Positions 31,630 to 38,035 of a DNA stretch of 64,000 bases are shown piece after piece. The stretch lies in assembly GCA_005223125.1 (NCBI GenBank), contig NJBH01000017.1, forward strand, positions 1 to 64,000, written 5' to 3'. Under the pieces are notes generated by a model. It worked only from the letters and a program-made list of their open reading frames with translations, had not been told where the DNA came from and searched no databases. Each line of letters begins with the position of its first letter. Position 1 is the stretch's first letter. The stretch is from Promethearchaeota archaeon Loki_b32. GTDB lineage: Archaea > Asgardarchaeota > Lokiarchaeia > Sigyniarchaeales > SOKP01. The position numbers and the translations under genes are program-made.

Positions 31630-31923
31630 TTATTTCTCACAAGCACATGGTTTTGCTTTGCATTTAATACATATACCAGGATATTTTTTTGAAACTGCAG
31701 ATTCAAGATCGATTTCTAATAAATTTGCTAGGGAATTTGTCCAGGCAATTATATCGGCTAATTCTTCTGAAGCATTTTTTTCATCAATTGCTTTATTTCT
31801 TAAAATATGAGCGAATTCACCAATTTCTTCTATTAACCAAATAAAAGTACCATTAATTCCTCTATTTAGATCTCTTTTTATGTAAATATCTTTAATTAAC
31901 TTTTGAAATTCTGAAATTTTCAT
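31630..31923 (-). CDS. MazG-like nucleotide pyrophosphohydrolase
   Basis: WLIEEIGE, EELADIIAW, C-terminal CxxC...CxC. Confidence 0.88.
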   Translation of the reverse strand: MKISEFQKLIKDIYIKRDLNRGINGTFIWLIEEIGEFAHILRNKAIDEKNASEELADIIAWTNSLANLLEIDLESAVSKKYPGICIKCKAKPCACEK

Positions 31924-32338: not shown

Positions 32339-34186
32339 TTGAAAAGAAAAGATTTTTTATTAATTTTAATGGGTTTACTGTTAATTATAGTAACATTCTC
32401 ATTTGTGTTTGATAATTCAGAAATAGAGTTAACAGATTATAATAATAATAATAAGAATCCACAATTTTCTGCCGACTTGGATGGAATCGAAAATATTATA
32501 ATAACAAAATTATATAGGAACGCTAACATAACTACATATGGGTTATTATATATAGAAGATACTATAACATTTAAAAATTTAAATAATCACCCTATAACTT
32601 CAATATTTTTGGGGATTCCTATAGATGTAACTGAAGATCTAATCTTTTTTAAAGCCACTGGAACTAGTGATAATACTCTACTATCTGACTGTTCATCGAT
32701 GATAATGAATGGAAATCAGATGGTAGTAATTTATTTTGATTCTCCTTTGTTACCATATCAAATTAGGGATGTTAAATTTACACATACATATAAGAATATT
32801 ATTTCATACTCCTTATTAGAAGATGATCAACACGTAGTTTTTTATCCAATAGTTTATCCATTGGCACCATATAATATAGAAGGTGAAGCTTCTGCGATCT
32901 TCAATTATCCTGTAGTGGCAACATCAGTAGATGGAGGATGGGGTTTTGTAAATCCTGCACTTTCTCGTATTTCATATGATTTTGATTCGATTAAAGATGA
33001 ATTAGAGATTGATTTTATATCCCCATTTTTAGAAAATTTGGGTGAAAAAAAGGAAGCCCTCATACATTTCATTGATAATGATAATTCAAAATTAGAGATG
33101 GAAGAAGTTAATCGTGAAATTTTTATCTCTCCATGGGGGATTATTAAAGTAAAAGAGAAGTTCTCATTAGTAAACTTCGGATATAAAGATATTAATGTAT
33201 TCACAATAAAAATTCCTAAAGCTGCAACAAATCTTTATGTTTTTGATGATTTAGGTGAAATCCAAGGTACAGAGATAATTGATCAAGGTGAATCAAATTA
33301 TAAAACTGTACAATTTCTCTTATATATTAATCGAGTAATTCTTAAACCAAATACAAATTTTGAATTTACTGTTGAGTATAACTTACCATTTGAAAATTAC
33401 GTTTCTTTAAATTGGTTTGAACAATCAATTCAAATTGATTTATTAACAACAACTTATGACTTTCTTGGCAAAAACCAGATTATCAACGTTATTATAGATG
33501 CCTGTAGCAGTATTAATTTAATTACCGAATCTCCTACAGCTATTACGCGGTCTAAGGGTGCTACAACTCTTTCATTCCTATCTGAAACGGTTTGCCCTTT
33601 GGAAAGAAAAATAATACAATTTACATTTACTATTGATGTGTTCGATATATTATTGAGACCTATTACATTCATATTAATAATATCACTGATTGCTTCAACA
33701 TATGTATTACTAATTAAAACAATAAAGAAAGCCGATACTACAATTTTATCAACAAAATATATACCGGTTAATGAAATTAGGGAGTTCTGTTCTTTATATG
33801 AAGAAAAAAATGCTTTAACCTTAGAAATTAGACTAGCAAAAGATGATGCTAAAAGAAAAAAGATAGCAAAAAAAAAGTATAAAAATATTTTAACTAAAAA
33901 TGTTTCAAAAATTGATGAAATTCAAAAAGAAGTAACTCCTTTTAAGAAAGTATTAATGGAAACAAGTGAGATCTTTGAAACTATTGTAAAGCGATTAGAT
34001 ATTTTAGAAGCAGAGAGAATAAGTGTTAAGGACAGTTTAGCTCTGTTAGAATCCAGGTATAGAAGAGGAAGATTACCATCCAGAGCGGCATATCTAAAAT
34101 TATCAGATGATTTTATAAAAAGAAGGAAAAAGATTGATAAAACAATTGACAAATTAATTCAGCAAATGAGGAGCTATCTATTATAA
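32339..34186 (+). CDS. ribophorin I (OST1)-like oligosaccharyltransferase subunit
   Basis: Signal/TM, two beta-rich luminal repeats (RNANITTYGLLYIEDTITFKN; REIFISPWGIIKVKEKFSLVN), a TM, and a cytoplasmic helical bundle. Confidence 0.75.
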   Translation: MKRKDFLLILMGLLLIIVTFSFVFDNSEIELTDYNNNNKNPQFSADLDGIENIIITKLYRNANITTYGLLYIEDTITFKNLNNHPITSIFLGIPIDVTEDLIFFKATGTSDNTLLSDCSSMIMNGNQMVVIYFDSPLLPYQIRDVKFTHTYKNIISYSLLEDDQHVVFYPIVYPLAPYNIEGEASAIFNYPVVATSVDGGWGFVNPALSRISYDFDSIKDELEIDFISPFLENLGEKKEALIHFIDNDNSKLEMEEVNREIFISPWGIIKVKEKFSLVNFGYKDINVFTIKIPKAATNLYVFDDLGEIQGTEIIDQGESNYKTVQFLLYINRVILKPNTNFEFTVEYNLPFENYVSLNWFEQSIQIDLLTTTYDFLGKNQIINVIIDACSSINLITESPTAITRSKGATTLSFLSETVCPLERKIIQFTFTIDVFDILLRPITFILIISLIASTYVLLIKTIKKADTTILSTKYIPVNEIREFCSLYEEKNALTLEIRLAKDDAKRKKIAKKKYKNILTKNVSKIDEIQKEVTPFKKVLMETSEIFETIVKRLDILEAERISVKDSLALLESRYRRGRLPSRAAYLKLSDDFIKRRKKIDKTIDKLIQQMRSYLL

Positions 34187-34210
34187 GAGCATTTGAATGT
34201 GAATGAATTT

Positions 34211-34834
34211 ATGAAACCATGGTTATTTGACATATTAGCATGTCCTATTGATAAACAATTTCCATTAAAATTATATATTTTTTCTTTTGAAAATAAACCA
34301 GAAGAATTTCAATCTATTATTGATATTTATAAAAACAGAGATATCAACATTATTAAAAAAGAAAAAATAATTGAGGTTTTTCAAGAAAATGACGAATATT
34401 TCTTAAGGGATAACATAGTCATTGAAAAAACCAAACTTAAATCCTATCTTGAGTTAATAATTTCGAGTATAAATGAATTTGAAAATGTCTTTAATAATTC
34501 TACAAACCAATTGAGTAAAAAAAGTTTTCAAATCATAAATTCTGAAGTTAAATCTAAAATTTTAGAACTTTTTAAAGATTTAAAATTCCATCATATTGAA
34601 GATATATTTCCTGAGTTATATTTTATAAATAAAGTAAAATTAGACATTGAAATTGAATCAGGTATATTATTTTGCAGCAAATGTAACCGTTGGTATCCTA
34701 TTATAGATACAATTCCACAGATGCTCCCTGATAAGTATCGTGATGAAAGAAAAGAAATTGAATTCCTTGAAAGCAATAAAAATTTATTAGATGAAAAATT
34801 TTTTAATCAAGATCTTAAACCATTTAATATTTAA
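34211..34834 (+). CDS. trm112: Trm112-like methyltransferase activator with a long central insertion
   Basis: MKPWLFDILACPIDK ... IESGILFCSKCNRWYPIIDTIPQML. Confidence 0.8.
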   Translation: MKPWLFDILACPIDKQFPLKLYIFSFENKPEEFQSIIDIYKNRDINIIKKEKIIEVFQENDEYFLRDNIVIEKTKLKSYLELIISSINEFENVFNNSTNQLSKKSFQIINSEVKSKILELFKDLKFHHIEDIFPELYFINKVKLDIEIESGILFCSKCNRWYPIIDTIPQMLPDKYRDERKEIEFLESNKNLLDEKFFNQDLKPFNI

Positions 34835-35013: not shown

Positions 35014-35367
35014 TTATTTTTAATAATACTACTTAAAAAAATTTTTCAATTGCCGGTATTTTTAATTTTTTCTTTTTGACTAAAAATTAAAAGTCATCAA
35101 TTCAAGACTGATAATAATCTTGGTTATATCAATCTTTTTTATTTCGGAAGAGATAAAAATATAATTTTTGTTTAAAAAACGCTATTTTGTCACTGTTTGA
35201 TTATTTAAAAATTTTAAAATTAACTCAATTCTTAATTTGTATTTATCATTTGATTATAAAAAATTTTAAATAAATCAAAAAAACCGAAATTTATCTATAA
35301 TAAGAAGAAAGATTTATTTGTCTTGTAAGTAAAATACTATTTAATTAAAATTAAAGAAAAGATTACA

Positions 35368-35679
35368 ATGCTTAACTTCAGTTGGGTAAGAAAAATAGGA
35401 AATAAAAGATTATTTATACTATGTCTTTCAATTGCAGTGATTACTACTTTATCTCTTGTTATTTTTATTGCATTTTCAAATACAACTGTTAGCCTTAATG
35501 ATTCTTCTGATGATTCTTCTGATGATGGGGGAGACGATGATGATTGTTTTTGACATAGAATTTATGGGAGTAATCTAATGGAAGATAGTGTTCTATACAA
35601 AAAAAATTCAGTCGATAATCATAATTTTGATATAGATCTCAAAAATATTAAATCCTATTTGTATGATCCTTATAAATAA
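35368..35679 (+). CDS. small membrane-anchored acidic protein; 61 aa if TGA 35551-35553 is a stop, 103 aa if it is read as Sec
   Basis: Basic N-terminus, TM, DSSDDSSDDGGDDDDCF, in-frame TGA, then 41 sense codons to TAA at 35677-35679. Confidence 0.5.
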
Positions 35680-35721
35680 ATAGTAGTTATAAGAGGACAA
35701 CCACGCAATGGTGTTGGATTT
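35649..35721 (+). promoter_or_regulatory. candidate eukaryote-type SECIS-like hairpin
   Basis: AUGA (35663-66), a roughly 12-position helix with CUUAUAA/UUAUAAG, an AAUAG loop, GA (35696-97); flanking UUG/CAA and UAAAUCC/GGAUUUA pairings; T-tract from about 35731. Confidence 0.35.
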
Positions 35722-35769
35722 AAAAAGAAATTTTTTTTTCTTAATTTTTTTATTTGAGGAAATATTCGG

Positions 35770-36395
35770 CTATTGAAATATAAAGTAATTGTATAAGTAA
35801 GTTTTTTGAGAATATTTAATATTTTTTGAATAGAATTTTAGTTTAAGTTCTAGAAAATCAACAGATAAATTGCTAACAAAATTAAGATTGTACCATTTAT
35901 TATCCTTAAATGAGTTCGATATTTCAATTGAAATTCTTTGATATTTGATGATTTTATACCTAAACAAATCAAAATTAACACATCTACGATAAGGTTAATC
36001 ATTCTTATCAAATACACAGTAATAAAAACCATTATTAATGGATTATTTCTAAAAGAGATTTTAATAAAGCTAAACAGATAGGGCTAAAATGTTAGATTAT
36101 AATCAAAACATAGCTAATTTATACTAAAAAACTATAGAATGCCGAATTTTTTTCTAAAAAGTCTTTTACAAGGTTTTTTATTTTTTCTGGGATGTTATAC
36201 TTTTACTTTATTCTTTATTACATTCTATTTCTGTTATACACCAATAAAAATTAATAGTTCTGCAAATGTATATGAAAAAAAAAGGAGAAATTTATTACTA
36301 ATTATAAAAAATTGATACATAATATAGAAAAAAAAAGATAACTTAAAATTATTCCAGAAAGTAATCCAATAAAGATTTCCCAAAACTTTCTTCAT
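35770..36395 (-). pseudogene. decayed multi-pass membrane protein remnant
   Basis: Hydrophobic fragments in shifting frames (MKKVLG/IFIGLLSGIILSYLFF..., ...NGTILILLAIYLLIF), broken by stops and frameshifts. Confidence 0.35.
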
Positions 36396-36664
36396 TCTTC
36401 ATTTAATATTAGTGATATGCCAAAAACACTTAACATTAACATTTACTTTATGAATTTACATGGTGATATCCCTTTTATAAACACAGATACAAAAGCTATA
36501 ACAATCTTAACATCAGTCATATTCAATAATTTAATTATTCATACATTCCATTTTACATAACGTAAAAAATCGCAAAATATAATATTAAGCCAAATATTTT
36601 TTTTTTCAACCTCAAAGTTCAAAATATTAACATTTTCAAAATAGCTTTTAAATTTGTAAAAATT

Positions 36665-38035
36665 ATGATTCCATTATCTGGTTTGAAATGGGGATTTTTA
36701 GAAATATTTTATTTAATTATTATTTTTATTGTAGGCTTTCTAATTACTTACTTAACCCTCCCATACATAATCAAATTGATGAAAAAAAAGAATTTTGTTG
36801 GATATGACATCCATAAGAATGCTCAACCAGAAATTGCCGAGTCTGGAGGTATTAGTATAGTTATTGGTTTTTCTATTACTTCAATATTCGTAATTATATT
36901 TTTTCCTAATTTCATAAATGAAACCATTGTCTTTTTATTAACTGTTTTGATAGCAGGAGCTATTGGATTTATCGATGATAGAAAAAAACTCAGATCACGT
37001 TACAAAATAATATTATCAATTTTTTCTGGTACAACTATTTTTTTTGCTAATTTAATTGGTTTTATTACAATAACCTCACCAACTATTCCCTTCCTCGATC
37101 AAACTCGAATGACAATTATTTATCCTTTCTTAGTTCCCATTATTGTAGCTGTTTTTACCAATACAGTAAATATGCTAGAAGGTTACAATGGCGAGGGTTC
37201 AGGAACGTGTTTAATCGCGGTCTGTTTTCTTTTTATATGTAGTTTAATATGGAATTCTACTGAGGGAGTGATTTTTACAATTCCAGTCATAGCAGTACTA
37301 ATTCCTTTTTTCATATATAATAAATTTCCAGCAAAAATATTTCCTGGAGATATAGGTACATTAAGTATGGGTGCAATGATTGCATGCATTATGTTATTTG
37401 GGTCATTGGAAGTTGCCACTTTTTGTGCTCTTTTAATTCATATATTCAACAGTTTTTATTATATTTATTCTGTACGTGGGTTTTTTGAGAGCAGTGATAT
37501 TAAAGGCAGTAAAGAAGATATAATCTTACTCGAAGATGATCGAATTAAAGCTTCAGATCAAAAAGATGCAGCATTAACATTGCCTAGATTAATATTAGCA
37601 AAAGGGCCATTAACAGAACCAGAATTAATAAAAAACTTTTATGCTATTTCAATAATATGTGGTTTTTTTTCCATTCTCTCTATCTTACTCATGCAATACA
37701 GTTTAGGGAACCTAAATATCTACATCTTAATTATTACTTTAATCGTTCTTTTAGCTCCAACTATTTTCATATTATATAAATTCCCCAGAATTCAAGGAAT
37801 AATTTTTCTGATGATGGTCCTATTAATTTCTATTTTGTCATTCCTAATATTTATTGAAGCTGTAATTATGCCACTTCCTTTTGAAGATGTAAACCTAGGG
37901 ATAATAAGTATTCCAATTCATCTATTAATTTCCTTTATACTAATGATTCCTATATTGTTATTATGGTATCTAATTACAATAAAGTATTTCTGGATTGAAA
38001 TTGATAAGATGAATAAAATCGAAACCCAAAATTAA
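36665..38035 (+). CDS. UDP-GlcNAc:dolichyl-phosphate GlcNAc-1-phosphate transferase (AglH/Alg7-like, MraY superfamily)
   Basis: GYDIHK, AESGG, GFIDD, NTVNMLEGYNG, PAKIFPGDIGT; extra C-terminal TMs. Confidence 0.88.
   Translation: MIPLSGLKWGFLEIFYLIIIFIVGFLITYLTLPYIIKLMKKKNFVGYDIHKNAQPEIAESGGISIVIGFSITSIFVIIFFPNFINETIVFLLTVLIAGAIGFIDDRKKLRSRYKIILSIFSGTTIFFANLIGFITITSPTIPFLDQTRMTIIYPFLVPIIVAVFTNTVNMLEGYNGEGSGTCLIAVCFLFICSLIWNSTEGVIFTIPVIAVLIPFFIYNKFPAKIFPGDIGTLSMGAMIACIMLFGSLEVATFCALLIHIFNSFYYIYSVRGFFESSDIKGSKEDIILLEDDRIKASDQKDAALTLPRLILAKGPLTEPELIKNFYAISIICGFFSILSILLMQYSLGNLNIYILIITLIVLLAPTIFILYKFPRIQGIIFLMMVLLISILSFLIFIEAVIMPLPFEDVNLGIISIPIHLLISFILMIPILLLWYLITIKYFWIEIDKMNKIETQN

Follow-up and report, generated by a model that had tools for sequence, protein, structure and literature searches.

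Lokiarchaeal selenoprotein genes such as HdrA-VhuD, VhuU and PrxL carry a selenocysteine (Sec) insertion sequence (SECIS) known as lokiSECIS or as the Asgard type I element resembling the eukaryotic SECIS (eSECIS) (Mariotti et al., 2016, PMC4989117; Huang et al., 2024, PMC11227280). It is located where the coding sequence ends and consists of AUGA, a 9-bp stem, an 11-nt loop that opens with A-rich bases and closes with G, mostly as AG, and then GA or AA. The published limit is two mismatches in the stem, and GUGA is an accepted Asgard variant of the core (PMC11227280). The published surveys count seven selenoprotein families in Asgard archaea, all of which were found via homology to known ones (Huang et al., 2024, PMC11227280; 2026 review, PMC13188914).

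Here we describe a small gene carrying such an element in Promethearchaeota archaeon Loki_b32 (assembly GCA_005223125.1). The window, that is, the whole stretch of DNA analysed, comprises positions 1 to 64,000 of contig NJBH01000017.1 and has a G+C content of about 24-30%. On its + strand, an open reading frame (ORF) starts with ATG at 35368 and runs for 61 codons ending in DDGGDDDD-Cys-Phe, followed by TGA at 35551-35553; beyond this codon the frame continues for 41 sense codons up to TAA at 35677-35679, giving 103 residues if TGA is read. These coordinates and the translation agree with a previous sequence-only reading of the window, which had proposed a new selenoprotein here. Gene callers cut the gene off at the internal TGA. 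Our results suggest that the family to which it belongs, C-x(1-5)-U (Cys, one to five residues, Sec), is very probably a real selenoprotein family, and that the gene in the window is likely to be a genuine member, with the UGA at 35551-35553 read as Sec, allowing for possible decay in its clade.

Compared with the lokiSECIS genes HdrA-VhuD, VhuU and PrxL (PMC4989117, PMC11227280), the recoding signal is the same and is recognised by a model built from such genes. In contrast, the protein belongs to no Pfam family (no match at E 0.01 or better), has neither a thioredoxin nor an enzyme fold, and has no Cys homologue that we could find, and the end of the C-x(1-5)-U coding sequence is always within the SECIS or beyond it. 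It appears neither in the lists of Mariotti et al. (2016), Sun (2021), Huang et al. (2024) and the 2026 review, nor in anything retrieved by literature searching. The seven Asgard selenoprotein families listed up to 2026 do not include it.

SECIS element and comparative evidence

All the published features of a lokiSECIS are found at 35663-35697, at the end of the coding sequence. AUGA occupies 35663-35666, the two stem strands 35667-35675 and 35687-35695, the loop 35676-35686 (AUAAAUAGUAG), and GA 35696-35697. Among the nine stem positions there are seven Watson-Crick pairs, one G-U and one C.A; four of the first five loop bases are A (AAAAA opens the loop in most relatives), the loop ends in AG, and the TAA stop codon sits inside it. 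The sequence-only reading had recognised the AUGA/GA core and had drawn it as a helix of about 12 positions with a 5-nt loop; the same bases are better read in the register of a 9-position stem and an 11-nt loop. The lower pairing and the T-tract that it noted beside the hairpin are both there, as the UUAAAUCC/GGAUUUAA stem and the T9/T7 tracts.

The covariance model used here (R1) was built only from six SECIS elements of the same genome (G000; three PrxL, one HdrA and two VhuD), that is, from other genes. In the 64-kb window it gave one strong match, at 35655-35700 (+), with 36.1 bits and an E-value of 3.8e-6 (115 kb searched). The hairpin thus scores as a SECIS with a model independent of it. 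A second, weak match at 31858-31900 (-) has no AUGA core and falls at the start of another ORF, and was taken as chance. When 150 of the 5493 first-look candidates of the whole genome were scored, nine matches were listed, comprising the six training elements and three others behind TGA-containing ORFs, one of which is the present element (E-value 1.4e-4). R1 also matched the expected position in every orthologous locus, with 27.8-49.7 bits. A descriptor scan of the genome allowing at most one mismatch found about 10 lokiSECIS elements, all but one behind ORFs with an in-frame TGA: three PrxL, HdrA, two VhuD, two twin-UGA genes, a small U-x-C membrane ORF and the present gene. At a looser threshold, 20 elements were observed, compared with 2-7 in shuffled genomes. 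Rfam searches, at the gathering threshold on the window and at an E-value threshold on 35300-35900, returned no SECIS family; search tools made for the SECIS types already known from archaea, bacteria and eukaryotes miss lokiSECIS (Mariotti et al., PMC4989117).

Downstream of the core, a mini-hairpin of the form ACC...GGU begins 2-5 nt past the 3' GA in all type I elements of this genome (contigs C3, C31, C36, C70 and C11), among them elements of PrxL, HdrA and VhuD. The exceptions are the VhuD element on C50 and both elements on C24, which have 3' hairpins of other sequence.

The minimum free energy (MFE) fold of the isolated RNA does not contain the SECIS stem (z -1.3), which speaks against the element, and we therefore relied on comparative evidence. 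In an alignment of ten SECIS sequences, 90.8% of the stem cells are paired, compared with 31-59% when the partners are slid. The changes are compensatory: at pair 18-36, six sequences have G-C and the four of the clade of the window have A-U, pair 13-41 alternates between U-G and A-U, the side hairpin co-varies as well, and a close relative, G027, has U-A where the stem in the window carries the C.A mismatch. The lower stem has a lineage-specific sequence. Duplex energies are too noisy in these AU-rich flanks, and contiguous helices were counted instead, cognate versus non-cognate: eight contiguous Watson-Crick pairs form in 6 of the 8 lineages, compared with 7 of the 56 non-cognate combinations. 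Together with the lokiSECIS-level scores at orthologous loci, these changes answer positively the question of whether the hairpin is conserved.

Across the five closest genomes, variability is lowest in the SECIS (10% of columns), and Cys-Phe-TGA does not vary at all; 54% of columns are variable in the upstream spacer and 46% in the linker, the highest share for any part of the coding sequence. No member has its stop codon ahead of the SECIS: it falls within the element or beyond it, between AUGA+1 and AUGA+167. The reading frame relative to the SECIS varies by lineage; therefore, the element is conserved as RNA and not as coding sequence. The overlap between hairpin and coding end had been raised as a caveat. 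Nevertheless, the same overlap is normal in this genome, where one VhuD gene terminates on the UGA of its own AUGA core, and the caveat therefore falls away. Translation running into the SECIS may be functional, for example if the unfolding of the SECIS were coupled to the efficiency of Sec insertion.

Family distribution and reading-frame conservation

We searched first with the read-through protein and afterwards with a profile, and found the gene in 13 of 54 genomes from this genus; metagenome contigs add further members, including near-identical copies of the gene in the window. Elsewhere in the class, the profile search gave only the related U-x-C type discussed below. Members share a basic N-terminus, one transmembrane (TM) helix, an Asp/Gly-rich linker of variable length, and a Cys followed after 1-5 residues by TGA. 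The Cys and TGA columns are invariant in the family alignments (where TGA is shown as C or W). Directly past the TGA there is usually Lys or His, then Arg or Lys, and the tail comprises 26-48 mostly hydrophilic codons (93 in G018). The distance from TGA to SECIS is 80-121 nt across members and 112 nt in the window gene.

Between TGA and SECIS, the TGA frame contains no stop codon in any of the 12 TGA-bearing genomic members or in five metagenome members, while the other two frames contain 1-8 stops each (2 and 7 in the window gene). Long ORFs here end with TAA in 72% of cases and with TGA in 13.9%, yet neither TAA nor TAG occurs at the Sec site of any member; homologues ending at Cys-Phe with one of these codons were thus looked for and not found in the family. 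Codon-level constraint past the TGA is seen in one group, that of G004, where the ratio of nonsynonymous to synonymous rates (dN/dS) in the tail is 0.14-0.29 (dS 0.3-0.9). Tail ratios of 0.7-0.85 in the G025 group and 0.4-0.95 in the clade of the window point to near-free evolution, and ratios inside that clade are uninformative. Conservation downstream of the TGA therefore takes the form of an open frame in the members that keep the TGA, with codon-level constraint in one group.

These observations bear on the idea that the TGA is an ordinary stop, ending a 61-residue product, and that the RNA downstream is a 3' untranslated region (UTR) or terminator element unrelated to decoding. That gene callers end at the TGA, that no Cys homologue was found, and that the isolated RNA fold is thermodynamically unremarkable would all fit this idea. 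Nevertheless, we consider it highly improbable, given a frame that stays free of stops as far as the RNA element when the others do not, a site that is never TAA although this is the predominant stop codon, an element that scores as a SECIS with R1, and the synonymous excess in the tail of one group.

Sixteen profile matches were retrieved from 1.84 billion representative proteins, and none has Cys at the Sec site: all either end at the TGA or show W there, which we interpret as a TGA translated as Trp by a different genetic code. The expectation that homologues would align a Cys with the TGA is therefore not borne out, and the classical Sec/Cys alignment test is inapplicable, as no Cys homologue was found. 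One genome, G068, has C-N-C without a TGA and was considered as a Cys form; it was rejected, since the TGA region is replaced by a duplicated segment. At this locus (G068:C136; L065, about 1570-1680), a direct duplication of about 30 nt (VELDLNNGYD twice) stands in place of Cys-x-Sec, and the SECIS is kept. This duplication may be a rearrangement or possibly an assembly artefact of the metagenome-assembled genome.

Selenocysteine machinery

The genome (4.13 Mb, 95.5% complete) encodes SepSecS (370 bits), SelB and a PSTK-like gene, as well as two selD genes, each with an in-frame TGA. ARAGORN found no tRNA-Sec, and the matches to the Rfam tRNA-Sec model over the whole genome were ordinary sub-threshold ones. 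A local scan of the surroundings of SepSecS and SelB, at an E-value threshold, revealed a tRNA-Sec candidate (C57:28519-28623(-); L096:10520-10624) with a UCA anticodon, a CUUCAAA anticodon loop and a long variable arm, adjoining SepSecS and with SelB 5 kb away on the other strand. It scores 23.9 bits, below the Rfam cut-off because of a 21-nt insertion in its T-loop. The candidate agrees with the published Loki tRNA-Sec, whose T-loop contains an intron and whose gene is about 6 kb away from EFsec (PMC4989117). The components of the Sec pathway, whose presence had been set as a check, are thus found in this genome.

In a further reading, a near-cognate tRNA (for Trp, Cys or Arg) would decode the UGA in place of Sec-tRNA(Sec); an open tail alone is silent on which residue is inserted. 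We regard this as extremely improbable, for every member has a canonical lokiSECIS at a distance of 80-121 nt from the UGA, the genome has a full Sec pathway, and a Cys or Trp codon, although simpler, is never found at this site. On the selenocysteine reading, the ribosome would decode the UGA at 35551-35553 as Sec under the direction of the lokiSECIS 112 nt downstream, which overlaps the coding end and presumably recruits the archaeal SelB/Sec-tRNA(Sec) complex, as such elements are known to do.

Gene and protein architecture

The features of the locus are collected in Table 1. A BRE/TATA-like (B recognition element/TATA box) block is conserved among close relatives, and the putative promoter together with the 5' UTR is less variable (24%) than the region further upstream (54%); the block could act as a promoter. 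The T9/T7 tracts lie in a region (35731-35751) that is T-rich in relatives too, with indels, and could serve as terminator. With such a block upstream and these tracts downstream, the selenoprotein gene looks monocistronic, as a unit of about 430 nt. Scans for bacterial promoters and terminators are inapplicable to archaea.

Table 1. Features of the C-x(1-5)-U gene and its surroundings in the window.
Feature	Position	Strand	Basis
Putative archaeal BRE/TATA (CCGAAA-TTTATCTA)	35284..35297	+	About 70 nt upstream of ATG; read from sequence
Full coding sequence with in-frame UGA, 103 residues + TAA (predicted)	35368..35679	+	Orthologues of equal architecture in 13/54 genus genomes + metagenome contigs
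Single transmembrane helix, residues 12-37	35401..35478	+	AlphaFold2, 15-sequence alignment
Acidic Asp/Ser/Gly-rich linker, variable length	35479..35544	+	Family alignments
Cys60-Phe61-UGA62 motif (UGA probably Sec)	35545..35553	+	Invariant in 5 close genomes
41-codon post-Sec tail, hydrophilic, predicted disordered	35554..35676	+	Frame 0 open in TGA-bearing members
SECIS lower stem, 5' strand UUAAAUCC	35648..35655	+	Pairs with 35716-35723; in MFE fold
lokiSECIS core: AUGA, 9-position stem, 11-nt loop, 9-position stem, GA	35663..35697	+	Covariance model R1 + alignment
Side hairpin ACCA-CGCAA-UGGU ("third arm"), 3' of core	35700..35712	+	Pairs hold in family
SECIS lower stem, 3' strand GGAUUUAA	35716..35723	+	Pairs with 35648-35655
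T9 and T7 tracts, likely archaeal transcription terminator	35731..35739, 35745..35751	+	Read from sequence
Decayed CcdA/DsbD_TM-like pseudogene, convergent	35850..36520	-	Intact-neighbour profile matches two frames, 17 stop codons

The AlphaFold2 model shows the helix with a per-residue confidence (pLDDT) of 75-91 and the remainder below 50. Since four Lys/Arg residues (R8, K9, K13, R14) precede the helix and the charged residues after it are all acidic, an N-in/C-out orientation seems probable, which would place the Cys-Sec pair outside the cell. The product would therefore consist of a cytoplasmic basic N-terminus, the TM helix, an unstructured acidic segment outside the membrane bearing Cys60-x-Sec62, and a hydrophilic tail of 41 residues. 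Concerning the 103-residue membrane-tethered CxU protein that had been proposed, the membrane helix and the Cys-Sec motif stand, while a fixed CxU spacing does not, as it ranges from 1 to 5 residues family-wide.

Genomic context and possible function

In all eight member genomes outside the clade of the window, the gene directly downstream is convergent and encodes a protein of 219-223 residues (236 in G004) with six helices, an invariant TPC (APC in G009) in TM1 and PC in TM4. The CcdA/DsbD_TM family is marked by six helices in two pseudo-symmetric halves, each with a conserved Cys. The neighbour matches Pfam DsbD_TM (PF02683) over its full length, with E 3e-4 and 20.6 bits, below the 27.1-bit cut-off; three of the eight members match NCBIfam DsbD (best E 2.8e-5); and Foldseek places the CcdA electron transporter 5VKV at the top for its model (probability 0.89, TM-score 0.46, E 0.24). 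A sequence-profile search of the PDB with this neighbour found nothing. In G076, G004 and G067, a paralogue shares its operon with two genes, which encode a membrane-anchored thioredoxin-like protein with CPGC and a classical CcdA (L099:7-2144, L100:7-2138 and L101:44-2025; the last gene of the G067 operon contains three TAA codons). Of the classical CcdA, the genome of the window keeps only a remnant of 24 residues (C32:53573-53644).

Among metagenome loci of the CcdA-like gene with enough flank, a convergent selenoprotein gene with its SECIS was found at 6 of 15. The wider block (32339-34834 and 36665-38035 in the window) comprises ribophorin I-like (PF04597), Trm112-like (PF03966) and GT4 AglH/Alg7-like (PF00953) genes. 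Its order is kept in G006. Five of the six metagenome loci likewise show the order AglH - CcdA-like - selenoprotein - Trm112-like, at least partly, and the sixth contig is too short to tell. The selenoprotein and CcdA-like genes are convergent and therefore not co-transcribed.

Tentatively, we propose that the protein may act as a membrane-tethered extracytoplasmic redox pendant that exchanges electrons with a CcdA-type transmembrane thiol-disulfide carrier, a role for which the present evidence makes a possible but not a probable case. The Cys-Sec pair would cycle between selenenylsulfide and thiol/selenol, and the pendant would occupy the place usually held by membrane-anchored thioredoxin-like proteins. 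The wider idea of a redox or metal-relay device free of any thioredoxin fold, in which a disordered selenopeptide with a Cys-x(1-5)-Sec pair partners a CcdA-type carrier, is doubtful. A redox or metal-binding role, as first suggested from the sequence, is thus kept here as a proposal.

Several observations weigh against the reading set out above. The CcdA assignment of the neighbour is based on three weak, mutually agreeing matches; the link to the carrier is adjacency within one conserved syntenic block and is not obligatory, as G075 has a CcdA-like carrier without the selenoprotein gene. In the window itself, the neighbour is a pseudogene, and G031, G027, G005 and G064 have lost about 590 bp of it. 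With the neighbouring carrier gene dead in the genome of the window, the protein would need another partner there; one DsbD_2 gene is present elsewhere in this genome. In addition, the SECIS elements of this clade have the lowest scores of the family (33-36 bits, with 43.6 in G027, compared with 37-50 in most others), with the C.A mismatch, AUAAA for AAAAA and, in two genomes, GUGA, while the head in this clade has a dN/dS close to or above 1, and the tail the 0.4-0.95 given above. The lack of a Cys at the Sec site of any of the 16 matches belongs here too.

Part of this evidence could mean that the family is real but that, in the genome of the window and the four genomes closest to it, the gene is a relic in decay, intact merely by chance since the loss of the CcdA-like partner and no longer the source of a useful selenoprotein; the dead or deleted neighbour, the weak SECIS scores with their deviations, and the relaxed ratios are what would be expected. 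Nevertheless, the SECIS is the least variable segment across the five genomes (10%, compared with 24-54% in the flanking non-coding regions) and C-F-TGA is invariant in them, the 103 codons contain neither frameshifts nor stops, and the linker indels among close relatives are all in frame. More near-identical copies exist in metagenomes, G027 has U-A in place of C.A, GUGA is an accepted variant in Asgard archaea (PMC11227280), and another DsbD_2 gene is available in the genome. Decay of this kind therefore appears quite improbable to us, and the gene in the window is still best regarded as a likely genuine selenoprotein gene.

The function could also differ, in that a real selenoprotein would capture or hand over soft metals or metalloids instead of taking part in disulfide redox chemistry. 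The acidic linker would draw cations, the Cys-Sec pair would chelate Hg, Cu, Cd or As-like species, and the membrane neighbour with its two cysteines would serve as conduit, as in the MerP/MerT relay. The variable spacing of Cys and Sec (1-5), in a disordered region beside poly-Asp, suits chelation better than a fixed catalytic geometry, and the six helices of the neighbour bear two intramembrane PC motifs. In contrast, no metal-resistance genes adjoin the locus, which is flanked by the Trm112-like, ribophorin I-like and AglH genes, and the neighbour matches CcdA/DsbD best and has its paralogue in an operon with the CPGC thioredoxin-like protein and classical CcdA. We therefore consider metal handling rather unlikely, and the electron exchange with a CcdA-type carrier remains the role that we put forward, with the reservations given above.

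Comparison with known systems

The closest relatives of the family are other small membrane selenoproteins of Lokiarchaeia, of the U-x-C type, which share with it the basic N-terminus, the TM helix, a Gly/Asp-rich linker, a Sec near a Cys, and a lokiSECIS of their own. The C-x(1-5)-U profile picks up U-x-C members with E-values of 1e-4 to 1e-9, and a member in G035 joins GGGGG-U-P-C to a long tail through the SECIS. These likenesses suggest only a distant kinship. The motif is inverted, with the Cys 1-5 residues before the Sec in the present family and two after it in U-x-C; the linker is acidic in the former and glycine-rich in the latter; the tail of 26-48 residues enters the SECIS, whereas the U-x-C stop codon lies 15-38 nt before it (three members measured); and the C-x(1-5)-U type was found in one genus only and is alone in having a CcdA-like neighbour. 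By these features, C-x(1-5)-U is a distinct branch, restricted to one genus among the genomes searched.

The same genome holds other selenoprotein candidates. A SECIS at C70:14682-14716, with its upstream ORF (L123), belongs to a small membrane candidate of the form TM-NEGG-U-A-C, scoring 36.3 bits with R1. On C24, at 226485-227703 (L122:632-1114 and 1331-1804, - strand), there is a tandem pair of ORFs, each about 160 residues long. They have no Pfam match, and each has its own lokiSECIS and contains two adjacent in-frame TGA codons (SGC-UU-EK and HAD-UU-AD).

The C-x(1-5)-U gene shows that searches starting from the SECIS recover additional selenoproteins restricted to single lineages, which all gene callers cut short. 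Three traits set the family apart: no Cys version was found, its predicted redox pair has a variable spacing and lies in a disordered ectodomain, and it has a genomic tie to a CcdA-type carrier, which gives a testable biochemical hypothesis. Its elements also provide independent, co-varying examples of eukaryote-like SECIS with lower stem and side arm, which could help to define the target of the archaeal SECIS-recognition factor.

With eukaryotic SELENOK and SELENOS there is likeness in layout only: a small single-pass membrane protein, a Sec in a disordered region and a SECIS of kink-turn type. No sequence match exists, and the Sec of the window protein would be at position 62 of 103, 41 residues from the C-terminus compared with 2-3 in SELENOK and SELENOS. 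The region around it is acidic and would lie outside the cell, whereas theirs is Gly/Pro/Arg-rich and cytosolic.

Finally, proteins of the ResA/TlpA/CcmG type are likewise membrane-anchored, with a redox pair outside the membrane, and are encoded beside a carrier of the CcdA/DsbD type. The window protein has neither their thioredoxin fold nor their CxxC motif, and would instead carry Cys-x(1-5)-Sec within a disordered peptide. If the proposed role were true, the family would represent a minimal, Sec-based replacement of ResA/TlpA-type proteins in Asgard archaea.

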